A stretch of 17,847 nucleotides of DNA from Promethearchaeia archaeon (GCA_029856125.1 JAHQWJ010000127.1:1-17847), one strand, 5' to 3'; positions 1,436 through 17,847 are shown, counted from the stretch's first letter. A program made the numbers and translations. Notes: generated by a model from the sequence alone, not told the origin.

Positions 1436-1738
1436 ATGCAAATGGATAATCCACCAGATAAACCAGATAAAGAAACATTGATAAAACTGGTCAAACAAGG
1501 CATTGAAATGTTAGCAGATAGAAACATTTCTAGTATAGTGATCTTGTCCTCCTATAAGATAAATTCCGTGCTAAAAGATAATTACGGCGTAAATATTAAA
1601 GTCGACAGAATTGGTAGAATCCTCTCATCTGTAGCTAAAAATAATCAACTTAAGAAACTTTCTACTAATATTCCCAAATATCAGCTACAAATAGCGAAAG
1701 TCGGAAGACTTGAGTATCCCGAGTTATCGTCTTCGTAA
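1436..1738 (+). CDS. Small hypothetical protein, possible winged helix-turn-helix
   Basis: 100-aa ORF filling the gap between flanking genes. The pattern helix (SYKINSVLKDNYG), turn, helix (VDRIGRILSSVAK), short hairpin (KKLSTNIPKYQL) resembles a wHTH. Fold call is by eye. Confidence 0.6.
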   Translation: MQMDNPPDKPDKETLIKLVKQGIEMLADRNISSIVILSSYKINSVLKDNYGVNIKVDRIGRILSSVAKNNQLKKLSTNIPKYQLQIAKVGRLEYPELSSS

Positions 1739-1774: not shown

Positions 1775-3160
1775 CTATTTGTTCTTAATATTTCGGAAAT
1801 CAGGAATTATTTTTTGTAATCTGTCAATTAACTTTTCAAGTTCTACAAAGTCTTCTTTACTATTATCTAATTCTGAAATCAGATTATCAAAGTTTGTAGT
1901 AATGCTAATTTCAAAGGGATGATTGATTGCACTTATTCCTTTTAAAATATCGATAGAGAGATTTTCTATCTGATTCGTTAAATTTGAGATTTGGTTTGCT
2001 GAGGAATCAATTTTTTCTCGCGTGTCTGTGTCTAATTTAGATAGTTCGTATTGTTTATTAATGGATTCATTGAGATTATCCTTTATAGATTTAGAGAATT
2101 CACCGATACTATGTTCTAAAGATTCACTAATTTCACTTTTTAATAGTTCGCTGATCTCGTGGGTATTCGATTTTAATTCTTCTTGCCCTTCAAGACGTTT
2201 TTTTACGTATCCCTCAACCTTTTCTTTGTATTCCTCTAACCTTTCTTGAAATTTTAAGTCAATCCATTTTTCTACTTTCTCGAAGCCCATATTAATTGCG
2301 CCAATCATTTCTGATAGAGAATCATTTATTTTAGAAAGTCCTATTAAAGTTCCATCATTAAATTCCGTTGACCACATTTCTAATTCGGATTGATAATTAT
2401 TTAAGACTAAGCTAGATAAATTCTGTAATCCCTTTTTAAAACCATCTATAACTGGATTAATGTTAGGGTAATTTATGTCGATTTTCGTATCAGCTTGATC
2501 GATTGACATCGGAATTTCTTGAAGATCGCCTGGAATTCCTTCAATTGTCTCTAATTTCTCACGTATTATACTTGGATCCTTCGCCTGACCATATTCAACA
2601 AGCTCTCGAACCCATCTGAAGAATTCTAGGGATTTTGGCGGCTCAACTTCGTATTTCACTCTAACTATTCCGCTTTTTTCGCCTAATTTGTGATTTTTTA
2701 ATTGATATACTTCTAATCCTAATTGATCGGCTTTTTTAAGTTTAGTGTGATCAAATACAATTCCAAATGCTAAGGGGTTTTGTTCATTTTGAAAATATAA
2801 ATGGTTTTTTTTATCAACATCTGAAAAGAAAAATGAATCACTATTAGGGTGAGAATGATACCAACCTACAACAGTAATATTTTCATCTTTAACTTCTTCT
2901 TCTATCTGTTCAAGTGCTTTATGAATCTTTTCTGAAAATCCTAATTCTACTTGATCACCGTGTGTAATAGGAATAGCTTTGATCACGTCAATATCATCGC
3001 TGTCAGGTTTTTTATTGCCCAAACAAAACCCTAAAACCTGTTCATTGTCAAAAGGAATATTTGCAAATCTTAATGCATGAGTAAGAATGTCTTTATACAC
3101 ACTCATTCGTATAAACACTTTACCGTTTTCTCTGGTTTCAATTGCGCTCTCATTCATCAC
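1775..3160 (-). CDS. MPN/JAB (Mov34) domain protein with long C-terminal helical/coiled-coil region; catalytic Glu position appears to be Gln (MPN-B)
   Basis: VVGWYHSHPNSDSFFFSDVD (H102, H104, S113, D116). QVLGFCLG aligns with the EVMG-x-x-x-G strand of Rpn11/CSN5. The last ~230 aa are L/I/E/K/S-rich and helical. Start is GTG 3160 or ATG 3157, behind GGAGGT. Confidence 0.9.
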   Translation of the reverse strand: MMNESAIETRENGKVFIRMSVYKDILTHALRFANIPFDNEQVLGFCLGNKKPDSDDIDVIKAIPITHGDQVELGFSEKIHKALEQIEEEVKDENITVVGWYHSHPNSDSFFFSDVDKKNHLYFQNEQNPLAFGIVFDHTKLKKADQLGLEVYQLKNHKLGEKSGIVRVKYEVEPPKSLEFFRWVRELVEYGQAKDPSIIREKLETIEGIPGDLQEIPMSIDQADTKIDINYPNINPVIDGFKKGLQNLSSLVLNNYQSELEMWSTEFNDGTLIGLSKINDSLSEMIGAINMGFEKVEKWIDLKFQERLEEYKEKVEGYVKKRLEGQEELKSNTHEISELLKSEISESLEHSIGEFSKSIKDNLNESINKQYELSKLDTDTREKIDSSANQISNLTNQIENLSIDILKGISAINHPFEISITTNFDNLISELDNSKEDFVELEKLIDRLQKIIPDFRNIKNK

Positions 3161-4614
3161 TATTTATTACCTCCTTGTTCAAGTTCTTTGATTTTTAATA
3201 GTAATTCTTTTTTATCAGATTCCAATTTATCGATTTTTTCAAAGATGGGCGTTTTTGTACCTTCCAAAATTAATACCGCAGCTTTTAAGTTTGTTACAAA
3301 CTTTTGAGAATTCTTTTGTATATAACTAATTGAATTTTTCATTAAGCCATGCTTCTTCGAGGTAATATCTGAAGTTTCTTTTTGCATCTTTTTAATCTTT
3401 TCGAGTGTAGCGTCTTTTATCGAATTAATTTTATCCGATAAGGTATTTAACGAATTCTCTAATTTTTCAAGATTTTCGAGATTCTTAGTTAGATTTCCAT
3501 TGAGGTTCAGTATTTTATTGTTCCATTCGTCGTAATCTTTTGAGAAATCATTTTTCAGTGCTTCAAATTTCTCTTTAAATAAAATATTTAGTTTCTTCTG
3601 AACGAATTCTTCTATCTCTCCCAATATTTTTGCTATCTCATCATGATATTCATCAATTTGATCTAGAAAGTCGTCAACATAGCCTTCTGCGTTAAATAAT
3701 TCTGAATTTAAATCGTCTTTATATTTCCTCTGAATTTTATCAATTCCAACGTTCACTAAACTTTTTAATTGAATTAAGTTATCCCTGATTTCAACATTAT
3801 TATTCTCAATTTCTCCCGAAATGTTTTTTGCTATCGAATTTAAGTAGTTAATTAAGGGTGTTAAAGATAAATCTAAAAAATTAGCAAGGCCAACTTGAAC
3901 TGTTTCAACAATTTTATGTTGATCTATTTCAGGTTGTTTAAACCTTAATTGATTCAATTCTGGGACTTGAACATCACCAAAGATATCGGCTGTTTCATTT
4001 TCTTCTATAATAGGGGGCTCATTTGAATATACACCGTTAATCAGTTCTACAAGTTTAAAATAGTATTCTAGATCGTTAGGAGGCTCAACAATTGCCTTCA
4101 CATCGTGAACGCTCGAATCCCTAATATTTGTTGGGTCAGTTAACCTAATAGCTCTAAATCCCGGATCATCTGAACGTTCCAAATATGCGTGGTCAAAAAC
4201 TAATGCTATACCGCTTGGATTCAATTCATTTTGCCAACCGAATTGATTTTTTACATCTGTAGGCGAAAAGAAAATCTTGTGCTGGAAAAGATTAGGGTGA
4301 CTATGATACCACCCTACCATAAACCAGTTTTTTTCTAAATACATCGAATTAGCTTTTTCAAAGAAAATATAATCATTTATTGAAAATTCGACTTCTACAC
4401 TACTTCCGTGAGAGATAGGTACGGAATCTTCAATTATAACATTTTTAAATTTCTTATCTTCGCTCTCTTCGTGATGTCCAATGAGCACTCCCATCACTTC
4501 TATACACTGAGAATGAATTCTCGCCTTATTTCCAAAACGTAATACATGTAACACCATTTTATAATAAGCGAGTGGTTTAATCTTAACTACACTATTGTCT
4601 ACATCTTTTCCCAA
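3160..4614 (-). CDS. MPN+/JAMM metallo-isopeptidase-like protein with long C-terminal helical/coiled-coil region (MPN-A)
   Basis: VKIKPLAYYKMVLH...IEVMGVLIG (E39) and MVGWYHSHPNLFQHKIFFSPTD (H104, H106, S117, D120) resemble Rpn11/CSN5. TTG start is preceded by SD-like GAAGTGAT. The C-terminal ~250 aa are helical. Confidence 0.92.
   Translation of the reverse strand: MGKDVDNSVVKIKPLAYYKMVLHVLRFGNKARIHSQCIEVMGVLIGHHEESEDKKFKNVIIEDSVPISHGSSVEVEFSINDYIFFEKANSMYLEKNWFMVGWYHSHPNLFQHKIFFSPTDVKNQFGWQNELNPSGIALVFDHAYLERSDDPGFRAIRLTDPTNIRDSSVHDVKAIVEPPNDLEYYFKLVELINGVYSNEPPIIEENETADIFGDVQVPELNQLRFKQPEIDQHKIVETVQVGLANFLDLSLTPLINYLNSIAKNISGEIENNNVEIRDNLIQLKSLVNVGIDKIQRKYKDDLNSELFNAEGYVDDFLDQIDEYHDEIAKILGEIEEFVQKKLNILFKEKFEALKNDFSKDYDEWNNKILNLNGNLTKNLENLEKLENSLNTLSDKINSIKDATLEKIKKMQKETSDITSKKHGLMKNSISYIQKNSQKFVTNLKAAVLILEGTKTPIFEKIDKLESDKKELLLKIKELEQGGNK
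3169..3174 (-). promoter_or_regulatory. Shine-Dalgarno GGAGGT embedded in the last codons of MPN-A (translational coupling)
   Basis: The minus strand reads CAA GGA GGT AAT AAA TAG TG ATG. The TAG stop overlaps the GTG start by 1 nt. Confidence 0.75.
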
Positions 4615-4823
4615 TTTTTATCACTTCAGCTTTTTAACAATAATAATTTTGAACAGTTAATATAAATGTATAGTGAATGATAATTTAATCGTGTTTTTTA
4701 TTTATATCTTTTTTTAGATTCTTAATTTTTAAGACAATCTTAGTCAACACCTAATTAAAAATAAGAATACTACTTCTTTTTGTAAGAAATATTAAAAGGA
4801 AATAATAGAAGAAATGATTTAAT

Positions 4824-5498
4824 TTAATGGGGTAGCGGTTTCCCGCAGTAAGGACAGAATTTCCAGTCAAGATCCTTCCCGCAACTAGGGCAAAAAGAGG
4901 ATGCTCCAGCTTTAGGTTTATCAGGTGGAATCGGGCTCCCGCTCGTTCCTTTAGGGATTGAAGGTAAACTTCTTGCAGTTTTTAGCGTCGCTGGTTCTTG
5001 TTGGCTCCCTTGAGCTCCTTTTTCCTCCTTAATATACTTCATTCTCTCTTGAAATGCTTGGCGTTTTTCGTCTTCTAATTCTTGACTTGATTTCATACCC
5101 TCTTCTTTTACCCATCCTGTTGCTGCTGGTCTTTTTATTTCGCTTTCTGGAACTTTTTCTAATTCAACTTTTTTAGCTTCAGAAATCGGGGTTGCAGCTT
5201 TTTTTTCTTCTTTTCTAGTAATAGCCTGCTTAGTTAATGCATGAGTAGTCTTCATAATTTGGTGGGGGTTTATATTTGGGATTGCTACTGTTCTCAACAC
5301 CCATCCAACTATGAGATTTTGGTTAGGAAAACCAGAAGCGCTCATATCCTCATCTTTAAAAACATAGGAATCAATAACATCTTTACCTTTTAGTAAACGG
5401 ACAGCCCATTTACCGTTTATAAGCCCTAATTGAATTCTATACGAAGTTCCAGAAATTCCTAGTTGACTACTTAGAGGTTCAAATCCTTTTTCAGAAAT
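4824..5498 (-). CDS. Protein with N-terminal globular domain, low-complexity linker and C-terminal zinc ribbon; start probably upstream of the track's ATG 5345
   Basis: C-terminus FCPSCGKDLDWKFCPYCGKPL (two CxxC). The middle is E/K/P/A/S-rich. The frame stays open 55 codons upstream of ATG 5345, to 5510, with protein-like sequence. The ATT start at 5498 is inferred; the CDS itself is well supported. Confidence 0.75.
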   Translation of the reverse strand: MSEKGFEPLSSQLGISGTSYRIQLGLINGKWAVRLLKGKDVIDSYVFKDEDMSASGFPNQNLIVGWVLRTVAIPNINPHQIMKTTHALTKQAITRKEEKKAATPISEAKKVELEKVPESEIKRPAATGWVKEEGMKSSQELEDEKRQAFQERMKYIKEEKGAQGSQQEPATLKTARSLPSIPKGTSGSPIPPDKPKAGASSFCPSCGKDLDWKFCPYCGKPLPH

Positions 5499-5730
5499 AA
5501 TTACATCAGCTCAATTTATTATAAAGTCTAATTAATTGGAATCAAATCTTATTTGTTGAAATTATAATATTATCATAATTTTCGAGTTTAAATAACTTTT
5601 TATTTGGTTGAAAAAAAAAAGATTTTTTTGGGGTTTAATCACTTTCAATGAAAAATAAAATCTAAAAAAATAGACATAAATATGAGATCTTGTATAAGCT
5701 TATCAAAAAAGAAATCATACAATTAAAAAT

Positions 5731-6693
5731 ATGACTGTACTTATTCCCAAAAACGTTTATTTGACCATCGTTGCAGCATGTGTTAGGTATGCTAATAAAC
5801 GAATTGTTAAAGACGATTGGCTTGAGGTTTCTGGTATATTTATTGGAAGAAATGAAGGAAACGACGTATATATTACAAAATCATATCCAATAATGCATCA
5901 AAAACAACAAGAACAGCAAGAGAGCGTAATTGATCAATACAAGTGGTCTAAAGAAGATTATGAAGCTCTCTCTATTATTGATGACGAAGCCTTTTCAAAT
6001 GGTGAATTTACAGTAGGATGGTGGCATAGCCATCCTGGATTCAAGGTAATGATGTCCCATATTGATATCAAAACTACTCTGAGTTATCAAACTAATAATC
6101 CTCTCGCCGTTTCATTAGTATTTAATCCTGAAAGGTTAGTGAGACAAATTGAGCTTGCTGAAAAGAAAGGTGATCCGGTAAAACAACTTGAGGGCGATCC
6201 TGGATTTAAAATATTCAGACTAGATGACGTAAATAGAGGAATTCAAGCTTCTTATCACACTGCAGATTATATCATTAAAGGTTTTGATACTCCGGAACAA
6301 ATGGTAATGTTAACTCAGAAATTCTTAATTGATATTACTAACATGTTCCCAAAAGACAATTTATTTGAAACTTATGAAAAGTTCGTAAATAACAAAATTA
6401 ATGAGTTGAATTCACTTTTACAAGGTGTAGATGAATATCTATCTACTTTAACTCGAAAGGGAGAATCCCATAGAATACATGAAGTCCTTACTAATCAAAC
6501 TAGAGATATTAGAAAATTTATAGCTGAATCTTTCATTAAAATTGAGAATATTAGACAATTCATGAACTATCTAGAATACAAAGAAAGATCTACCATTGTT
6601 CCTAAAGTTGAAATAATTTTGGCTGAGTGGGACAGCACTGTTTCTCAATTAAACGCAAAACTCACAGCAATTACCAAAAAATATGCATTTTGA
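5731..6693 (+). CDS. MPN+/JAMM metallo-isopeptidase-like protein with shorter helical C-terminus (MPN-C)
   Basis: LEVSGIFIG (E32) and TVGWWHSHPGFKVMMSHID give a canonical E...H-x-H-x7-S-x2-D (H99, H101, S109, D112). About 130 aa of helical tail follow. Confidence 0.92.
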   Translation: MTVLIPKNVYLTIVAACVRYANKRIVKDDWLEVSGIFIGRNEGNDVYITKSYPIMHQKQQEQQESVIDQYKWSKEDYEALSIIDDEAFSNGEFTVGWWHSHPGFKVMMSHIDIKTTLSYQTNNPLAVSLVFNPERLVRQIELAEKKGDPVKQLEGDPGFKIFRLDDVNRGIQASYHTADYIIKGFDTPEQMVMLTQKFLIDITNMFPKDNLFETYEKFVNNKINELNSLLQGVDEYLSTLTRKGESHRIHEVLTNQTRDIRKFIAESFIKIENIRQFMNYLEYKERSTIVPKVEIILAEWDSTVSQLNAKLTAITKKYAF

Positions 6694-6822: not shown

Positions 6823-9030
6823 ATGCGTAAAGTTCAATTTCCTTTTGTTGCTGTTTTAGGGCAAGAAAGAATGAAGCTCGGTCTTATTTTAAACGTTATC
6901 GATCCTCAAATTGGTGGAGTATTATTAACTGGACAACAGGGGACAGGTAAATCTACGGGAGTACGGTCTCTTGTAGAAGTGATGCCTAACATTGAAGTTG
7001 TTAAAGATTGTCAATTTTCTTGCGATCCTAAATCTCATATAGATGATCTCTGTGAAGAATGCCGCGTTAGAAAAGAAAATGGGGAGTTGGAAACGGAGTC
7101 TAAAGATATGCGACTAATTAACTTACCATTGGGAGTTACAGAAGATATGGTAACAGGTTCTCTTTCAATTGATAAGGTCTTAACCGAAGGAATCAGGAGT
7201 CTTCACCCTGGACTTCTCGCTAAGGCTAATCGTGGTATCCTTTATATTGATGAGATAAATTTGCTCCAAGATCATATAGTCGATACCTTACTAGATGCTT
7301 CTGCTTCTGGTGTGAATATTATTGAAAGAGAAGGTATTTCGGTTATGCATCCTTCTCGGTTTATATTAGTCGGTTCGATGAATCCCGAGGAAGGCGATCT
7401 TCGCCCACAAATAGCTGACAGACTCGGTTTAGAGGTAAAAATAAAAGCACCAAGGGATGCAAAGCTACGCGCTGAAATTACGAAGAGAGTGATTGATTTT
7501 GATGATAATCCTAAAGCATTCATAAAAAAATACGAGCAAGAGCAAGAAGAATTAAGAAAAAAAATCGTAAAGGCGCGTGAATTAATTAAAGATGTCAAAA
7601 TTCCATCATCGGTTTACGAATTTGTATCTAGGTTAGTTAACGAATTGGATATTTTTTCGCAGAGAGCAGACATTACGTTTATTCGGTGTGCTAGATCTCA
7701 CGCTGCTTTTAGTGGAAGAACCGAAGTTGTGGAAGAAGATTTAAACGCTGCAATGGATTTAGTTTTCGAGCACAGAATCAAGTCGCTTCATTACGAAATG
7801 ACGCCAGAAGAAGTTAAAGCTAAAATTGTTGAAGTATACGGAAAGATTCAAAAAGCGTACGAAGATCCAAAAACTTACCGGCCAAATAAAGATACCGAGG
7901 GACCTTTAAAACACGATGATACACCTCAAAAAGAATTTAAACGTCAATCAGTTGATCCTAAAAAAGTTGATATCCCGGAAACAAAAGAACAGAAGTTACC
8001 TGCACCCAAATACCCAGATAATAAGAAAAGAAACCCTTCGCCTGCTGGTGGATGGAAAGTAAAAGATATTCCAGAATACGACGAACGCGAATTCAATTTC
8101 TTTGAGAATGGGGTTGATTCATTGCCATTAATTTATCAGATGGAAACCAAAATGACTTCCGTTTTGGATACCATCAGAAAAGATCGAAAAGTTTCCGATT
8201 ATGGCGGTAGAGGGATTGGAAGACGCATAAAAATCGCTTCTTCTCAAAAAGGTCGGTATGTATCGTATAGAAGACCGATCAATCGACCCAAAACTATTGC
8301 TCTCGACGCAACCATCCGGAATTATTTAAAAAATACTATATACAATCAAACAGATATTGAATTTCCAATTAAATTTGACAAGTACGATCTAATGGATAAA
8401 ATTTACGAGTATCGAGCTCCTTTAGTACTATTCTTTGTTCTCGATTCTTCAGCTTCGATGTATTATGTAATCAATCAAATGACAAATGTTATTCTTTCCC
8501 TCCAGCGAGAAGGTTACAGAAAAAAGGATAAGTTAAGTTTGATTATTTTTAGAGCGAAAGAAGCAGTTGTTCTTCAGAAACCTACTGTGTATTTTAAATC
8601 TGCTGTAAACAAACTCAAAAAAGTCCAAGGAAAATCCTATACTCCTATGGCCGCAGCTTTGACAAAATGCTTAAAATTAATTGTCGCTGAAAAACTAAAG
8701 AATAGAAACATAATTCCGGTCGTTTTCGTTTGTAGCGATTTAGGAGCAAATATTTCCTACAAATACCCAGATTTAATCGCTCAGGTTCAATCAGATTACA
8801 CTCTAGTCGTTAACGAATTAAAAGCTCTAACAAAACAACTATCGAAAAAAGGAGCGCATATGGTGGTGTTAGAGCCTAAGAAATCTTACGCTACTAGAGC
8901 ATTGGGTGTTAATACATTTGCGGCTAACAAAATAAAAAAGAATTTTAAAAAGTATGGAAACGCTGAGGTATTTCAATTCGATCGCGTAAATCCCAAAAAC
9001 TTAATTCTCGAACTGAAAAAAATACTTTAA
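6823..9030 (+). CDS. Magnesium/cobalt chelatase I/D-family AAA+ ATPase with C-terminal vWA domain
   Basis: FPFVAVLGQERMKLGLILNVIDPQIGGVLL, Walker A GQQGTGKST (6931-6957), Walker B ILYIDE and EREGIS...HPSRFILVGSMNPEEGDLRPQ are ChlI/BchI signatures. A Pro/charged linker follows, then the vWA MIDAS motif DSSAS (8443-8457) with TP and SD elements. Confidence 0.93.
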   Translation: MRKVQFPFVAVLGQERMKLGLILNVIDPQIGGVLLTGQQGTGKSTGVRSLVEVMPNIEVVKDCQFSCDPKSHIDDLCEECRVRKENGELETESKDMRLINLPLGVTEDMVTGSLSIDKVLTEGIRSLHPGLLAKANRGILYIDEINLLQDHIVDTLLDASASGVNIIEREGISVMHPSRFILVGSMNPEEGDLRPQIADRLGLEVKIKAPRDAKLRAEITKRVIDFDDNPKAFIKKYEQEQEELRKKIVKARELIKDVKIPSSVYEFVSRLVNELDIFSQRADITFIRCARSHAAFSGRTEVVEEDLNAAMDLVFEHRIKSLHYEMTPEEVKAKIVEVYGKIQKAYEDPKTYRPNKDTEGPLKHDDTPQKEFKRQSVDPKKVDIPETKEQKLPAPKYPDNKKRNPSPAGGWKVKDIPEYDEREFNFFENGVDSLPLIYQMETKMTSVLDTIRKDRKVSDYGGRGIGRRIKIASSQKGRYVSYRRPINRPKTIALDATIRNYLKNTIYNQTDIEFPIKFDKYDLMDKIYEYRAPLVLFFVLDSSASMYYVINQMTNVILSLQREGYRKKDKLSLIIFRAKEAVVLQKPTVYFKSAVNKLKKVQGKSYTPMAAALTKCLKLIVAEKLKNRNIIPVVFVCSDLGANISYKYPDLIAQVQSDYTLVVNELKALTKQLSKKGAHMVVLEPKKSYATRALGVNTFAANKIKKNFKKYGNAEVFQFDRVNPKNLILELKKIL

Positions 9031-9074
9031 ATTTATAACTAACTTCTTAAAGTTCTTATATTATTATTCAATTA

Positions 9075-10322
9075 ATGGATAACAAAGAAAATTCTGTCTT
9101 AGTTGCTGGATTTAACACTCGCCCTTTAGTTTATTCTTTACACAGAGCAGGATATGATGTGTATGCTGTTGATTTCTTTGGTGACTCAGACTTTTATCCA
9201 TATATTAAAGATTGCTTAATTCTTACCAAAAAATTAAGCGTAAACTATGATTTAGCAAAAAATAATTATAGTGAATACCTCCCTCTCTTAATTTTAGAGC
9301 TATTAGATACTTATCCTAAAATAAAGTATTTAATAATTGGAAGTGGTTTAGATGATGCTATCGAAGAGAGAACCCTTATTTTAAAAGATATTAATAGAAA
9401 GAAGTACAAAATTCTTAACCTTAATAACGAAATTGAAGTGATTAAGAAAAGCAGAAATACAGAATTCATTTTCAATTTGTTAAAAAAATTTGGTTACGAT
9501 GTTCCAAGAACAGTTTCCTTCCACGAAGTTAGGTCAAAAGTTAACGAGTTAGAATACCCACTTATATTAAAGAAAAAGAGTGGTTCTGGTGGAACAAATG
9601 TGTATAAAATACAGAATGAATCTGATCTCACCTTTTACATCAACCTAATCAGTAGAGAAAGCTTTGATCCAGAAGATTGGTTGATTCAGGAATATCTTGA
9701 AGGGAATCCCGTAAGTTGTACGACAATCTCTAACGGAGTAGAAAGCGAATTAATTACTGTAAATCATCAGATAATCGGAGATAAATATCTTAACGCTCCA
9801 AAAGAATTTATGTATTGTGGCAATGTGGTTCCTGCTAACGTAATTGCAGAAGAAAGGAAACTGATAGTTGACATTTCATTGAAATTATCTACCGAGTTAG
9901 GTTTAAAGGGAATAAATGGATTCGATTTTGTGTTAAGAAACCATTATCCATATTTAATAGAGATCAATCCCCGAATTCCAGGATCAATAAGAGCTTCTGA
10001 AGAGGCAATGAACATAAATTTATTAGATTTGCATATAAAAAGTTTTACAGAGAAAGGATGGGAACTCGTCAAAAAGACGCTAAAGGATGCGAAAATCGAA
10101 AATTTTACGACCAAGATGATTTTCTTTGCACCTAAAGAAATCGATAAAAACCTAATAAATAAAATTAACGACCTGGAATATGTTCACGATAAGTCTGAAC
10201 CAGTCAAAAACATTTATAAAAACGAACCAGTTTGCACTATTTTATTTAAGGCTAAATTTTTTCCTGATTCTTATCTGGGTAGTTTAAGAATAGTAGATAA
10301 GATAAAAAAGATAATTAAATAG
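9075..10322 (+). CDS. ATP-grasp domain ligase (COG2232-like archaeal carboligase family)
   Basis: N-terminal VLVAGFNTRP...YAVDFFGD; YPLILKKKSGSGG; LIQEYLEG; GINGFDFV; YLIEINPR. Confidence 0.88.
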   Translation: MDNKENSVLVAGFNTRPLVYSLHRAGYDVYAVDFFGDSDFYPYIKDCLILTKKLSVNYDLAKNNYSEYLPLLILELLDTYPKIKYLIIGSGLDDAIEERTLILKDINRKKYKILNLNNEIEVIKKSRNTEFIFNLLKKFGYDVPRTVSFHEVRSKVNELEYPLILKKKSGSGGTNVYKIQNESDLTFYINLISRESFDPEDWLIQEYLEGNPVSCTTISNGVESELITVNHQIIGDKYLNAPKEFMYCGNVVPANVIAEERKLIVDISLKLSTELGLKGINGFDFVLRNHYPYLIEINPRIPGSIRASEEAMNINLLDLHIKSFTEKGWELVKKTLKDAKIENFTTKMIFFAPKEIDKNLINKINDLEYVHDKSEPVKNIYKNEPVCTILFKAKFFPDSYLGSLRIVDKIKKIIK

Positions 10323-10330
10323 CCTAAAGA

Positions 10331-11080
10331 TTATTGTTTAATAATCGTTTTGATTTTTGCTATATAGCTTCTGAGGATTTTCTCGTCTCCTTCGGCCACA
10401 GCGATTGCGAGTATCCTCCTCTCATCTAATTCGTGGATAATAATCGAACCGTGATCTCCTCCAATTATCGAGAATTCTAAACCTCCATCCAATAAGACTC
10501 CTGCTAAATTATAAATAGCGGAGATCATTGCGGATATAGTTGGTTCTGGCATAGTAGATTGAACTTTAATAGGTAAGCCATCTTTGGTGATGATGGCAAT
10601 CACTAGAGCATTAGGGATTGCTCTTTTAAGAGCCACAAAGATTTCTTCCTTGATAAGATCACTCGTCTCAATAATTGCTGACATTTTTATAGCGAACTTT
10701 CTTAGTGATCGTATGTAAAAATCTAACCCTTCAAGTTCAGCTAATTCTCTATCTAAATAGGCGATTAGGGCCATATAATCAGTAAGGATTGATAAAATAA
10801 TTCTTTCTTTCCCTGTTATTAAAGTATAAGCGATTTTTTGGTTTAGTGAATCGTGTAACATTTTAGAAGATAAGAAAACTAAACTACTACTCGCTGCAGA
10901 AATTTCAGTTTTAGTCATTACTATGTCTTCTTTTAATTCACTTACAATAGGTGTACCATCATGAGAGGAAATGGAAATACCTAGAAGGCTTTCTTGATCT
11001 TTGATTTCTTTTTTTAATAATTCTGATAATTCTTGATTTAGTAGTTCTATATTGACTTCCTTAGACATAGAAATCTTCAA
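10331..11080 (-). CDS. Tandem (double) Roadblock/LC7 domain protein
   Basis: Two copies of the Roadblock pattern: ISISSHDGTPIVS...ISAASSSL and IAIITKDGLPIKV...ISAMISAI...IIGGDHGSIIIHEL. Start is TTG 11080 or ATG 11068. Confidence 0.85.
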   Translation of the reverse strand: MKISMSKEVNIELLNQELSELLKKEIKDQESLLGISISSHDGTPIVSELKEDIVMTKTEISAASSSLVFLSSKMLHDSLNQKIAYTLITGKERIILSILTDYMALIAYLDRELAELEGLDFYIRSLRKFAIKMSAIIETSDLIKEEIFVALKRAIPNALVIAIITKDGLPIKVQSTMPEPTISAMISAIYNLAGVLLDGGLEFSIIGGDHGSIIIHELDERRILAIAVAEGDEKILRSYIAKIKTIIKQ

Positions 11081-12126: not shown

Positions 12127-13017
12127 ATGGAAGAAGACGACAGGGACAGAATTATTCGTGAATTACGGGAAGAATTGAAAAAAGTTATTAAAAAATTCGA
12201 GAATTACAACATTATAATAAAGAGCAAAGAGGACCTTATAAATAATTTAACCAGATCTTTGGACTTAAAAGAAGATCAGATCAAAACAATGATAGACTCT
12301 ATGAATTTAAAAGAACAGCACAACGACACGTTAAATACTTCATTGCAAATAAAGAACGAGAAAATTAAAGATTTGGAAAAGAATATTAGATCTCTAAATG
12401 AAGAAATTAACCTATTAAAATCCTCTACTGTTGATAAAGATATTATTGCTGAGAAAGAAAGTGATTTAGAAGAATGTCAGAATAAACTGGTCATTTTAAA
12501 GGGAGAGTTAGAAAAACAAGAAGAAGATCTTGATTTGTTAGATGCAGAAAACGAAAAATTAAGAAATGACCTTGCTTCGAGTTCAGACCCTCAAATCGTT
12601 GATTGGACGCATGTAGAAATTCCTAAAGAATCTATATTAAAAAAAATTCGAAAGATTCTCTCTAAAGCTGTTCATAACGTAACTATTGCCGTCCCCGACA
12701 TTAAAGATTTACAAGATCTGCACTTATATGAAGTACGGTCTTCTGTAAATATGAAAATTATGTGTTATATCGATCCCAGTCTTGAGGATGACGAACAACT
12801 TTTGATGGAGTTTGAAAGTTTGGACAATATCTCAATTCGGCTATACGAAGATCGAGATAGATACTTAATCGATCGCGACGGGGAGGAACTTTTGTTTGGA
12901 ATAATTGGAGAAGGAGAGAATAACAATTTAATAATTCACACTCAAGATGCGAAGCATCAAAGATTACTACGAAGTCTCGTTATGGAAGGATGGCTACGAG
13001 CAAGAAAATTAGATTGA
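12127..13017 (+). CDS. Coiled-coil protein with C-terminal TrmB-effector/PLD-like alpha/beta domain lacking HKD
   Basis: Residues 1-150 are heptad-rich. Residues ~165-296 (IRKILSKAVHNVTIAVP...ISIRLY...LIDRDGEELLF...EGWLRARKL) follow the TrmB-C/PLD-fold pattern by eye, with no HxKxxxxD motif. Confidence 0.7.
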   Translation: MEEDDRDRIIRELREELKKVIKKFENYNIIIKSKEDLINNLTRSLDLKEDQIKTMIDSMNLKEQHNDTLNTSLQIKNEKIKDLEKNIRSLNEEINLLKSSTVDKDIIAEKESDLEECQNKLVILKGELEKQEEDLDLLDAENEKLRNDLASSSDPQIVDWTHVEIPKESILKKIRKILSKAVHNVTIAVPDIKDLQDLHLYEVRSSVNMKIMCYIDPSLEDDEQLLMEFESLDNISIRLYEDRDRYLIDRDGEELLFGIIGEGENNNLIIHTQDAKHQRLLRSLVMEGWLRARKLD

Positions 13018-13903: not shown

Positions 13904-14160
13904 TTTAAAACGAGCTTAATATTAATGGTATTATTCTAATATTTGATATAATTAATTTAATTAGATAAAATTTTTGTTGAATTACTTTTAGAGGGAAATT
14001 GAATGGAATTACCCAAAATCAAGGAATTGATTAAGAATTTTTTTTTAAAATTTGGATAAATATCTAATATTATCTTAATATTAAATTCATAAGGCATAAT
14101 TTTTTAAGAACGAAAAAGAATTTAGATACTTACTACAAGCAATTTTTTAATAATTTTTTA

Positions 14161-17100
14161 ATGGGTGAGAATAAGTTGAGTACTATAAAAAAATCAAATT
14201 TAAATATTAATGATCTATTCAAATCAGATGAAAAAATAACCTTCTTAGTTGGAGCTGGAGCTTCAGTTGATTCTCCATCCCAATTACCTTCAGCTAGTAA
14301 TATAATGAAAGCACTAATTAAATTCACATGTACGAAATCTGAGGTTGAAAAAATCGTAAACACTCAAGGTTTAAACTTTGAAACTTTATTAGGAATAATA
14401 CATAACTCGCTCAATGATGATTTACAATTTTTAGATTTTTATTTGGAAATCAACAAGCCTAATATCCAACATTTTGTTTTAAGTGAAATGCTCCAAAAAG
14501 GACATTATGTTATAACTACAAACTTTGATTTTTTAATAGAGCACGCTCTACTTCAGACAGACTATCCTAAAAAAAAAATAGTCCCAGTTATTACTGAAAA
14601 AGATTACCAAAAGTTCAGTGATCCAGAGAAGTTGTATAAAAATAAAAAAATTCCAATTTACAAACTTCACAGCTCTCCTAAAAATATTATCACCGGAGAA
14701 GATACCCGTAATTCTTTTATTAACACCTTAAAGCTAATTGGATCAAATCGAGATAAAAACAATATCATTCAATTAGAGCCGTTCAAAGCTCAAATGTTTG
14801 AACAGATTTCAAATGAACGATCCCTGATAATTATTGGTTACTCGGGTAAAAATGATTACGATCTTATTTCAACTCTTAAGACTATGAGGGGATTGAAAAA
14901 CTTGATTTGGATTAATCATATTGTCAATGGTGAACCAAAGGGGGTCCTATATGAATATAGCAAACCAAGGAGCATGGATTTAAGCAATTTAGATGGTTTA
15001 GATCAGCACCTTACAGAAATTAAAAGATTAAATGAATCCGTTAATGTATTTCGGTTAAATACTTATACACCTAAATTTCTTGAGAATCTTTTAGATAAAA
15101 AAGAGAAAATCAGTAAAGAAAAATTTGAATTGAATTTAGGCGATTGGCTTAAGGATAAACTTAATGAACCATCTGAATTAACCAAACTTTTTATTTCTAA
15201 TAAGATTTATTCTGAAACCAAGAATTACGTCGACGCTCTCAGGTGTTTGGAAAGCTTATATAGGTTAAGTGACGAATCTGGAGATAGTCATTGGAAAGCA
15301 ATATCTCTAATGGAAATGGGGATTGTTAACTATAAACAATCCAAATACGGTGACGCATTAGATCAGCTACGTAAATCTCTACAAGTTCAAATTAAATCGA
15401 AATTAATGCCGGAACGAGCTTTGATTTTTAAATACATAGGTCTTTCGCATCAAGCACTTAGAGAATATTCAGATGCTATAAAAAATTTTGAGTTCGCACT
15501 GAAAGAAAATGAAAAAATTAAAGACTTTCAACAAAAGTCGGATGTATACAACAATCTAGGCGTACTTTATCAAGAACAACATAAGTATAAAGACGCTTTG
15601 ATGTATTTCGAATCAGCAATAAAAATTAACGAGAGATTCGAAAATCTTAGTAAGAAAGCGTTAAATTTAAAGCTTAAAGGGAGAGTCTATCATTCAAAAA
15701 AAAATTTTAGCGAAGCTTTAAAGAACCTTCAAATTGCATTAAAAATTTCCGAACAATTAGAAGATCTCGAGCAAAAAGCAGAGATTTTGAATATTATTGG
15801 ACGAATAACTCATGAATTTGGAGACTCTCTAACTGGATTGGAGAAATGTAATGAATCACTTAATCTTTACAATCTTTTGGGGGGAATTGAAGGAACACTA
15901 GATGCTTTAAACACTATAGGAATCATATATAGGGATCAATGGAATTACTCCAAAGCTTTTGATTACTTTGAAGAGGGATTTCAAACTGCCGAGAATTTAG
16001 GAAATATTCAATTAAAGGCCAGATTTTCGCGCCAATTAGGGATGATTTTTCAGAATCAGAATAAGTATTTTGAAGCACTTAAATGGTTTGAAGATTCTTT
16101 AAACTTTTATAAGCAGATTGGTGTAATTAGAGGAGAGGTTGATGTTCTTATAAATATGGGGTTAATATACAAGGAACAAAAAACTTATTTAAAAGCGTTA
16201 AAGAATTTTGGGAAAGCTCTGGAAATTTATGATCAATTAGAAGATTTAAACAATAAGGCATCCACTTTGAATATTCTTGGACGGATATATCTTGATCAAA
16301 GAAAATTCTCAGAAGCATTTAAAAACTTCCAGGAGGCTCTTCAGCTTTACGGGGAAACTGATAATCCTGAGGGGACAGTTGAGACTTTAAAAAACATTGG
16401 GAACCTCTATGCTGAACAAGCTAATTTTCAAGAGGCACTAAACAGATATAAAGATGCTCTAGAAATTATTAAAGGCATTGGAAAAACAGAAAAAAAAGCT
16501 GATCTTCTAAACAGGCTAGGATTGATTTTTCAAGATCAGGGGGACTATCCTCAAGCTAAACAGAAATTCGAAGAAGCATTAAATCTCTATAGAAAACAGA
16601 ACAATATGGAAGGACAAATTGAAAGTCTTCATTTAATTGGAATAAATTATCATTATGTAGAAGAAAATGATATAGCTTTAAAGACATTTGAAGAAGCTAT
16701 AAATATCGCTGAACAAATCGGTAACTTACATAAGAAAGCAATGTGCTTAAACATAACTGGTAAGATCTATCGAGAACAATGGAATCTCGTAGAGGCTTTA
16801 AAGCGCTACGAAGAGGCTCTATCGATTGCAGAACAACTAGGGCATTTAGAAGAACAAGTTGAAATTCTTAGCGTGATCGGAGAAATTTATCAAGCTCAGA
16901 AGCATTATCCAGAAGCAGTAAGGAGATATAACGAAGCAATATATGTCGCAGAAAGTTTAGGAAACCTTGAAATTAAAGCCGATATCTTTACGAGCATAGG
17001 GGATATCTATTACGATGAGGATAATTATCTTGAAGCCTTAAACTTATACGAAGAAGCTTTAAATATCGACGATCAACTTGGAAATATGAAGGGCAAGGCG

Positions 17101-17847
17101 TATAGGCTACTTTGCATTGGAAAGATATTTTTTATCCGTAATAAATACAATGAAACATTGGATAGATACAAAGAAGCTCTAGAGCTTGAGGAACAATTAG
17201 GTAATCTTACAAACCAAGCGGTTATGATACGAATGATTGGAGATATTTTTAAAGCTCAAGAGCATTTTCAAGAAGCATTAAAATGGTATCAAGATGCATA
17301 CAAGCTTTTTGAAGAAATTGAAAACTTGGAAGGAATTGCAGATTGCTTTGAGAGTATTGGATTAGTGTATCAAGAATTAGGTAATTATCCTGAAGCATTA
17401 AAGTGGAATAGTGAAGCACTTAAATTATCAGATCAAATTTATGACGACGAGAGGAAAGCTCGAATTTTATGCAGTATAGGCGCACTCTTTCATAAACAAG
17501 GTGTATATAAAGATGCCTTTAAACGTTATAATATTGCCCTCAACATATTTGATAGAATAGGAGACTTAATAGGGAAAACATATTGTTTAAATAAGGTAGG
17601 TCTTGTATACCAAGATAGAGGGGATTATACGGAAGCTCTTAAATGGTACGATCGAGGAACAAAACTTTTTAAAGTATTAGGACCTTCAAAAGAAAGAGCA
17701 GAGAATTTGTATAATACAGCAATGATCTATAGGGATCAAGGATTATATCTTGACGCTTTGAAAACCTTTGAAGAATCTCTCAATATTGATAATGAGCTTA
17801 AAAATTTCACCAGAAAAGCAGAAAGTCTTAATAACATTGGATTAATT
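14161..17847 (+). CDS. Large SIR2-like (SIR2_2) domain + tetratricopeptide-repeat protein, C-terminus truncated by the window edge
   Basis: Frame open from ATG 14161 (or TTG 14176 behind GGTGAG) to the window end, 1229 codons. Motifs: TFLVGAGAS (GAGAS at 14251-14265), TTNFD (14515-14529), YKLHSS (to 14676), IIGYSG (GYSG at 14836-14847), LIWINH, then TPR repeats. Not in the ORF track. Confidence 0.92.
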   Translation, partial: MGENKLSTIKKSNLNINDLFKSDEKITFLVGAGASVDSPSQLPSASNIMKALIKFTCTKSEVEKIVNTQGLNFETLLGIIHNSLNDDLQFLDFYLEINKPNIQHFVLSEMLQKGHYVITTNFDFLIEHALLQTDYPKKKIVPVITEKDYQKFSDPEKLYKNKKIPIYKLHSSPKNIITGEDTRNSFINTLKLIGSNRDKNNIIQLEPFKAQMFEQISNERSLIIIGYSGKNDYDLISTLKTMRGLKNLIWINHIVNGEPKGVLYEYSKPRSMDLSNLDGLDQHLTEIKRLNESVNVFRLNTYTPKFLENLLDKKEKISKEKFELNLGDWLKDKLNEPSELTKLFISNKIYSETKNYVDALRCLESLYRLSDESGDSHWKAISLMEMGIVNYKQSKYGDALDQLRKSLQVQIKSKLMPERALIFKYIGLSHQALREYSDAIKNFEFALKENEKIKDFQQKSDVYNNLGVLYQEQHKYKDALMYFESAIKINERFENLSKKALNLKLKGRVYHSKKNFSEALKNLQIALKISEQLEDLEQKAEILNIIGRITHEFGDSLTGLEKCNESLNLYNLLGGIEGTLDALNTIGIIYRDQWNYSKAFDYFEEGFQTAENLGNIQLKARFSRQLGMIFQNQNKYFEALKWFEDSLNFYKQIGVIRGEVDVLINMGLIYKEQKTYLKALKNFGKALEIYDQLEDLNNKASTLNILGRIYLDQRKFSEAFKNFQEALQLYGETDNPEGTVETLKNIGNLYAEQANFQEALNRYKDALEIIKGIGKTEKKADLLNRLGLIFQDQGDYPQAKQKFEEALNLYRKQNNMEGQIESLHLIGINYHYVEENDIALKTFEEAINIAEQIGNLHKKAMCLNITGKIYREQWNLVEALKRYEEALSIAEQLGHLEEQVEILSVIGEIYQAQKHYPEAVRRYNEAIYVAESLGNLEIKADIFTSIGDIYYDEDNYLEALNLYEEALNIDDQLGNMKGKAYRLLCIGKIFFIRNKYNETLDRYKEALELEEQLGNLTNQAVMIRMIGDIFKAQEHFQEALKWYQDAYKLFEEIENLEGIADCFESIGLVYQELGNYPEALKWNSEALKLSDQIYDDERKARILCSIGALFHKQGVYKDAFKRYNIALNIFDRIGDLIGKTYCLNKVGLVYQDRGDYTEALKWYDRGTKLFKVLGPSKERAENLYNTAMIYRDQGLYLDALKTFEESLNIDNELKNFTRKAESLNNIGLI
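15181..17847 (+). repeat. Coding array of at least 22 TPR-like units at an exact 120-nt (40-aa) period
   Basis: Consensus xxLNxIGxIYxxQxxYxEAL-xxYEEALxIxEQLGxxxxKA. The (E/D)AL-like motif recurs every 120 nt from 15232 to 17760 without indels. Units are divergent at DNA level. Confidence 0.9.

Follow-up and report, generated by a model that had tools for sequence, protein, structure and literature searches.

The window analyzed here, a stretch of 17,847 nucleotides from a Promethearchaeia archaeon (GCA_029856125.1 JAHQWJ010000127.1:1-17847), is one complete contig of a 3.69-Mb assembly (32.7% GC) and encodes three MPN-domain proteins, two of which probably form a pair of active enzyme and decaying partner. 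Gene A (positions 3160 to 4614) and gene B (1775 to 3160), both on the minus strand, are identified by sequence comparison as sister paralogues from a tandem duplication within Lokiarchaeia, a placement taken from the source names (Promethearchaeota/Lokiarchaeota) of the close homologues of A. Judged by analogy, they are probably a Lokiarchaeia MPN+/MPN− pair that is convergent with Rpn11-Rpn8 and BRCC36-Abraxas and not their ancestor. The third MPN gene, C (5731 to 6693, plus strand), is transcribed divergently from A, B and a fourth gene, Z (4824 to about 5498, minus strand), which lies between A and C. An earlier reading of this DNA (the sequence-only reading) had noted three MPN genes within 5 kb and a Zn-ribbon gene amid them. 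Both observations were borne out: three open reading frames (ORFs) pass the Pfam JAB (PF01398) cut-off (E = 2e-11 for B, 9e-14 for A, and 2e-15 for C), and the ORF between A and C gives weak zinc-ribbon matches. Its proposal that the three form one heteromeric complex fared differently, and the most telling feature of the locus, the repeated decay of the active site of B, had been overlooked.

As deduced from Pfam JAB and an orthologue alignment, A (484 amino acids [aa]) possesses an MPN+/JAMM domain with Glu39, His104, His106, Ser117, and Asp120, and C (320 aa) carries the canonical set Glu32, His99, His101, Ser109, and Asp112. B (461 aa) retains His102, His104, and Asp116, and in the alignment its Gln41 (codon 3038 to 3040, minus strand) stands where JAMM proteases have their catalytic Glu. 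The catalytic Glu and the zinc motif thus occur together in A and C and not in B. The motif of C is canonical, and that of A contains in this subclade a 3-residue insertion that leaves all catalytic residues in place; with these differences, the three genes are not equivalent. Among orthologues, the catalytic Glu/His/His/Asp set is complete in 85/85 A and 76/76 C sequences versus 30/84 for B, and the catalytic residues of A are invariant across 83 aligned orthologues. The 54 broken B orthologues show 19 different patterns, with Gln41 common to a clade of six sequences that includes the closest relatives of this B. On a B tree built with the catalytic columns excluded, the state changes at least seven times, five of these changes being forced by well-supported branches.

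B is under purifying selection all the same, with ratios of nonsynonymous to synonymous substitution (dN/dS) of 0.15 to 0.19 in the MPN domain and 0.16 to 0.24 in the tail against four close genomes, and thus it is not a pseudogene. It shows what defines an MPN pseudo-enzyme, namely, a fold under selection from which catalytic residues have been lost, and the zinc ligands remain in this copy. By analogy with JAMM proteases, the replacement of Glu by Gln41 should abolish catalysis in B. Mean identity of the MPN domain is 44% for B versus 66% for A, and that of the post-MPN helix and linker is 55% for B versus 54% for A. The head of B has therefore drifted while its helix and linker stayed as conserved as those of A, which is the pattern expected of a structural partner. 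These data indicated that B is, as far as its sequences tell, turning into a pseudo-enzyme whose active site was lost repeatedly.

The two genes are tightly linked. We surveyed 121 genomes of the class, of which 100 are listed with both A and B; since most of the 100 belong to one family, the counts describe conservation and are not independent trials. A and B lie within 2.5 kb of each other in 98/100 genomes, the exceptions being one 6-kb insertion and one contig break, and in 82/83 fetched loci they are codirectional and less than 250 bp apart. Two genera of a second family likewise have the pair intact, amid quite different neighbors. At the A/B junction (3158 to 3175, minus strand), the TAG stop of A and the GTG start of B share one base, and a Shine-Dalgarno-like GGAGG lies just upstream, within A. 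This arrangement suggests translational coupling and hence equal amounts of the two proteins.

Their shared ancestry is evident over the whole chain. An hhalign comparison of A with B covered 412 profile columns, tails included (E = 2e-74), at 29% identity, and the post-MPN regions (about residues 175 to 330) match each other with E values of 5e-11 and 4e-10, with no comparable match elsewhere in the genome. In a tree of Lokiarchaeia MPN domains (62 rows, with long, gappy, and some redundant rows removed; LG+G4, no mixture model), A and B form one clade with support of 100/96, the sisters of which are single intact genes of another family; a first tree that included long-branch rows left the A/B relation unresolved. 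C falls outside this clade.

We then considered the tails. The sequence-only reading had assigned a helical tail to each protein, and all three are helical; they are of two kinds, extended helices of 220 to 250 residues in A and B versus a compact three-helix bundle in C. In the AlphaFold2 (AF2) model of A (mean predicted local distance difference test score [pLDDT], 75.7; predicted template modeling score [pTM], 0.43), an Rpn11-like head is followed by a post-MPN helix (residues 182 to 196), a disordered linker (about 206 to 230), and a long rod (232 to 481; positions 3172 to 3921, minus strand) consisting of helices 232 to 308 and 316 to 481. B carries a conserved LQEIP linker motif and a rod at about residues 237 to 458 (positions 1787 to 2452, minus strand). 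The hydrophobic period along the rod of A is 3.66 (hendecad), then 3.57, and then 3.52 (heptad), and that of B follows the same order with 3.68, 3.57, and 3.49, as read from the alignment, the single-chain AF2 model being that of A. Rod length between anchor residues is fixed in 71/83 A and 81/83 B orthologues. The two rods would fit a parallel, in-register coiled coil of about 33 to 37 nm (220 to 250 residues at 1.5 Å each). The peripheral stalk of A/V-ATPases is built on such geometry, its E and G subunits being two different chains that form a long heterodimeric coiled coil with 11-residue periodicity. The likeness to the A and B rods is a geometric analogy only, and no homology is claimed.

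Prediction of the full-length A+B complex gave an interface score (ipSAE, interaction prediction score from aligned errors) of 0.47, compared with 0.00 for the best of three controls, with at least 82% of contacts agreeing between runs and a partner pLDDT of at least 65. In the calibration set, 58/80 solved complexes and 2/110 mismatched pairs attained the mark; at an ipSAE of 0.60 or below, it was reached by only 7/80 solved complexes and by both of the passing mismatches. The prediction is thus weak; it strengthens the genomic case slightly, and it proves nothing. For the heteromeric complex that had been proposed to form through the tails, linkage, the stop/start overlap, the shared tail region, the matched periodicity, and this weak predicted complex all point to A and B; they do not extend to C or Z.

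We consider it quite likely that A and B form a physical complex, and likely, too, that A is an active isopeptidase on ubiquitin-like conjugates. We lean toward a combined model in which A and B constitute a hetero-oligomer, B serves as scaffold or activator, and C stays outside. In this model, one MPN+-rod gene would have been duplicated in tandem inside Lokiarchaeia to yield A and B, which would act together in a hetero-oligomer (in the simplest case, a 1:1 dimer), with translational coupling keeping their amounts equal. Their rods would zip into a parallel coiled coil of about 33 to 37 nm, and the MPN heads would meet via their first and post-core helices. Zinc isopeptidase activity would reside in A; B, as a pseudo-enzyme, would serve A as scaffold or activator or else bind substrate, and the rod would hold the two heads at a set distance from some anchor. 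The likeliest substrate would be a conjugate of the ubiquitin-like proteins encoded on contig C65, as suggested by family function only. There, an operon contains a ubiquitin-like gene, E1 (ThiF, E = 2e-57), E2 (E = 2e-25), and a JAB gene of 278 aa, so that a ubiquitin-like system is present in the organism outside the window. The earlier statement that the window itself shows no ubiquitin, E1, E2, or PCI gene was correct. C and Z would sit at the locus through family-wide synteny. A stronger version, in which B is required to switch A on and the two make up an obligate enzyme/pseudo-enzyme deubiquitinase heterodimer on a 35-nm hetero-coiled-coil tether, is conceivable, and we hold it only tentatively.

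Several observations weigh against the A-B hetero-oligomer. A search for indels in one rod that are mirrored in the other found none; since no change in rod length is mirrored in the partner, coevolution of the register is not supported. An ipSAE of 0.47 lies in a range that is more often wrong than right unless the pairing is likely beforehand. Moreover, solved structures include many MPN dimers, and the passing score, obtained for the A-B pairing only, may therefore come from likeness to them. The 30 intact B orthologues and the zinc ligands retained by the B of this genome mean that its "dead" status is deduced from the Glu-to-Gln change only. Nothing at the locus names a substrate, and another JAB gene sits in the ubiquitin operon. 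Finally, the linkage counts come mostly from one family and are hence not independent.

Alternatively, A and B might be coregulated yet form separate homo-oligomers, A acting as a protease by itself, borne on its own rod, and B as a catalytically relaxed binder or competitor. Other families have single-copy relatives in which the site is intact and the tail shows weak similarity (E = 3e-5 to 1e-2), and an ancestral homo-oligomer is plausible on that account. The two rods carry similar net charge with no obvious complementarity, and the archaeal CsRpn11 is monomeric in solution (PMC6043591). Against this account, A and B occur together in nearly every genome having either, B loses catalysis only where an intact A is present, the stop/start overlap suggests equal amounts, and a hetero-interface, weak as it is, was predicted. 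On these grounds, we regard separate homo-oligomers as unlikely.

Next, the rods might themselves be the main function, as a filament or as lipid-binding amphipathic helices, and the head might act on another substrate, such as a peptide tag added by an ATP-grasp enzyme. The tail profiles match apolipoprotein A-IV (E = 4e-10 for B and 2e-8 for A) and apolipophorin, and ATP-grasp and AAA+-vWA genes lie downstream of C in the family. The same profiles, however, match Ndc80, chemoreceptors, and designed bundles, so that the apolipoprotein matches reflect helical periodicity, and an apolipoprotein identity of the tails was set aside. Regularly spaced prolines of the apolipoprotein-repeat kind are lacking from the rods, the ATP-grasp and AAA+-vWA genes are beside neither A/B nor C in the second family, and Rpn11, CSN5, and CsRpn11 are the nearest matches of the heads. 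This account thus appears quite unlikely.

We judge it very unlikely that all three MPN proteins, perhaps joined by the Zn-ribbon protein, make up one multisubunit MPN complex through their helical tails, as had first been proposed. In favor of it, C is found within 8 kb of A in 85/101 genomes, Z is beside A or C in most loci, and an A+B+C clade is not rejected (approximately unbiased test, P = 0.13). Gene order across the family is nevertheless conserved for the entire block, to which a membrane protein, a ChlI/D-type AAA+-vWA protein, and an ATP-grasp protein also belong, and with unrelated neighbors in the same conserved order the linkage of C is ordinary family synteny. C is separated from A and B in at least five genomes (G007, G024, G036, G055, and G070; by 1.66 Mb in a closed genome) and lies 13 to 21 kb from them in three more, of genus g10. 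It is also present in three closed genomes of the second family, in which a JAB family search yielded no MPN frame longer than 362 aa, that is, it occurs there without A or B.

The structure of C points the same way. Its AF2 model (pLDDT, 92.3; pTM, 0.88) consists of an MPN domain and a three-helix bundle (residues 208 to 320) packed within the chain. The MPN fold was recovered for both A (Pfam JAB; Foldseek E = 2e-10 to Rpn11) and C (Pfam JAB; VIA-align to Rpn11, Z 17.1, root mean square deviation [rmsd] 4.1, 155 aligned residues). C aligns to A over residues 2 to 187 only, i.e., over the MPN domain; its tail does not align with the rods, and its bundle resembles generic spectrin-like bundles (Z about 11). 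With its gene on the opposite strand and its fold self-contained, C is probably an independent single-chain JAMM protease, which may interact transiently with A-B.

In 12 genomes of genus g19 (loci L069 to L077 and L079 to L081), the C orthologues carry an insert of 29 to 32 bases that splits the JAMM motif just after the HSHP(G/D)F codons (e.g., L077:5327-5415); the equivalent site in the window is 6042/6043, where no insert occurs. All 12 inserts can adopt a bulge-helix-bulge shape with 4/4 central pairs and two 3-base bulges, and the central pairs vary (GGCT/AGCT, GACT/AGTT, and GGTT/AACT). Excising the insert restores frame and motif, and it is absent from 52 other C-type motifs. The insert is likely a tRNA-type mRNA intron, as its sequence suggests.

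Z is a neighbor rather than a demonstrated subunit. The gene (4824 to 5498, minus strand; about 224 aa) encodes a conserved N-terminal domain of 100 aa, a variable linker, and a C-terminal CxxC..CxxC zinc ribbon. Its frame, like that of three relatives, continues beyond the ATG up to an ATT near 5498, and the conserved N-terminal domain begins near there, the ATT being the probable start codon on sequence grounds. The zinc ribbon is missing from two Z orthologues. Within Lokiarchaeia, Z is beside A in some genomes and beside C in others. The N-terminal domain (positions 5190 to 5498, minus strand) had no match in Pfam, PDB, or the Atlas, and it represents a family, unannotated and mostly single copy, that spans several Asgard classes and was found in 92/151 genomes of the phylum. 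Of 12 Z-domain loci checked, 11 of them from other classes, none had an MPN gene nearby. Z is thus a member of an older, Asgard-wide family, and its inclusion in the complex is not supported. Inspected by eye, the neighbors of the Z domain often include an aminotransferase-like gene and sometimes roadblock, stomatin-like, or Cdc48-like genes. Beside C in two genomes, G026 and G019, a 206-aa gene was first taken for Z, and its TATA-binding-protein motifs ruled this out; it is a TATA-binding-protein-like gene in the place of Z, divergent from C (L043:10341-10973 and L042:9855-10508).

That A-B is the direct archaeal ancestor or orthologue pair of Rpn11-Rpn8, CSN5-CSN6, or BRCC36-Abraxas is scarcely credible: the design is the same, an active and an inactive MPN protein with helical tails, and Foldseek aligns the A model to BRCA1-A and BRISC chains, but the duplication is placed within the Lokiarchaeia paralogues, where its sisters are single intact genes, the decay of B is recent and happened several times, B is nearer to Rpn11 and CSN5 (profile scores of 53.8 and 48.9 bits) than to Rpn8 (27.9 bits), the C profile, as distinct from those of A or B, gave only MPN-domain-level matches outside the class in the genomes searched, and a set of PCI subunits is lacking. 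Being closer to the MPN+ proteins Rpn11 and CSN5 and sister to A, B is not a eukaryotic MPN− orthologue. The comparison with eukaryotic complexes made by the sequence-only reading therefore stands as analogy and fails as orthology.

The analogy is closest in the pairing itself. Rpn11 works as a heterodimer with the inactive Rpn8, an active/inactive organization reported to be unknown in archaea (PMC6043591), and BRCC36 is inactive alone and active with an MPN partner that is itself catalytically inactive and has a structural role (PMC12731174). As proposed for A-B, the BRCC36-Abraxas/ABRO1 (KIAA0157) cores of BRCA1-A and BRISC combine an active JAMM protein with an inactive MPN partner, and the A model aligns to BRCC36 chains. 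The BRCC36 and Abraxas subunits, too, have helical C-terminal tails. A and B differ from them in being recent sisters, with a decay of B that is incomplete and lineage specific, and in their tails, which are rods of 220 to 250 residues instead of a short bundle. The locus shows no identifiable BRE- or MERIT40-like gene, no genome-wide search having been made, and the vWA domain near C belongs to the ChlI/D-type AAA+ fusion. With Rpn11-Rpn8, CSN5-CSN6, and eIF3h-eIF3f, A-B probably shares the active/inactive pairing, and its heads score best against Rpn11 and CSN5 by profile and structure, the best Foldseek matches of the A model being Rpn11, CSN5, and CsRpn11; it differs in that no PCI gene is found at the locus and that B is not Rpn8-like. 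The subunits of the lid, the COP9 signalosome (CSN), and BRISC have short helical tails, and the A and B rods are much longer. In the single-chain models, neither the 250-residue extended helix of A nor the self-packed bundle of C is lid-like.

CsRpn11 of Caldiarchaeum subterraneum (PDB 6FJU/6FJV), an archaeal Rpn11-like JAMM protein, is the top match of the A profile (58 bits) and has the same fold as C (Z 16.2, rmsd 3.4, 144 aligned residues). It differs in being a 202-aa monomer encoded in a ubiquitin operon, and its positional counterpart here is the 278-aa JAB gene of contig C65, which forms its own clade; A, B, and C do not occupy that position. The genome holds six JAB genes, i.e., A, B, C, and one each on contigs C65, C79, and C143. 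The family signature reported for the cluster is present as quoted. It is not specific to the cluster, since it fits all six genes, the C65, C79, and C143 genes carrying the same LRY/FAN-type helix and GW(Y/W/F)H(S/T)HP motif.

No PCI match was found in the window, and genome wide, three frames of 816, 248, and 1,467 aa gave weak PF01399 matches, short of the six PCI subunits of a lid-type set. The 816-aa frame lies on contig 147 and has several PCI-like matches. On contig 79 (G000), an MPN gene of 515 aa (L205:93-1637), intact and with a tail of helical repeats, is 1.8 kb from the 248-aa gene (L205:3445-4188), the weak PCI match of which (E = 3e-4) is just under the cut-off. This suggests that the contig 79 locus is a better place than the window to seek an archaeal PCI-MPN link. 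Further tandem MPN genes were seen in the class. Contig 7 of genome G036 (L194:456-2631) carries a second tandem pair, a 396-aa intact MPN gene followed by a 336-aa MPN gene that lacks a zinc ligand, with tails shorter than those of A and B. Tandem short (202 to 227 aa), degenerate MPN-like genes with no long tails occur in G036 (L195:3562-4865) and, directly upstream of A, in G043 (L050:940-2160).

In eukaryotes, a pair made up of one active and one inactive MPN protein forms the catalytic core of the proteasome lid, of the COP9 signalosome, and of BRISC/BRCA1-A. The split there is ancient, and how the active protease became dependent on its dead paralogue can no longer be traced. The A-B pair, if it works as proposed, would be an independent and still ongoing origin of this design, and its intact, half-dead, and dead B alleles would be a natural series. 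A and B stem from a recent duplication and share 29% identity, and the B alleles vary between intact and completely decayed, so that two recombinant proteins would suffice to test how a homomer becomes an enzyme/pseudo-enzyme heteromer. The broader idea of three enzymes in one complex is not retained, and because A-B would parallel eukaryotic complexity and not precede it, its weight for eukaryogenesis is limited. No publication describing the pair was found in the literature searched, most subscription journals being outside the search.

A promoter and terminator scan with a bacterial model gave no excess above shuffles. Four sequencing runs labelled metatranscriptomic are flagged as probably DNA, and contigs from them span fragments only. 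A 100-aa gene (1436 to 1738, plus strand) is convergent with B and conserved beside it in nearly all loci of the family; it has no Pfam match, and its Atlas clusters are unnamed Promethearchaeota proteins. Downstream of C throughout the family lie the ChlI/ChlD-type AAA+-vWA fusion (735 aa) and the ATP-grasp gene (415 aa), which span positions 6823 to 10322 (plus strand) here; they do not adjoin C in the second family, and the window has no large chelatase subunit. They are followed by a 249-aa roadblock/LC7 protein (10331 to 11080, minus strand), probably of two domains judging by its length, and by a 296-aa protein with an N-terminal coiled coil (12127 to 13017, plus strand). An open frame of more than 1,260 aa (14068 to 17847, minus strand) runs off the contig end and, judged by eye, has a SIR2-like N-terminal part and then many TPR-like repeats.

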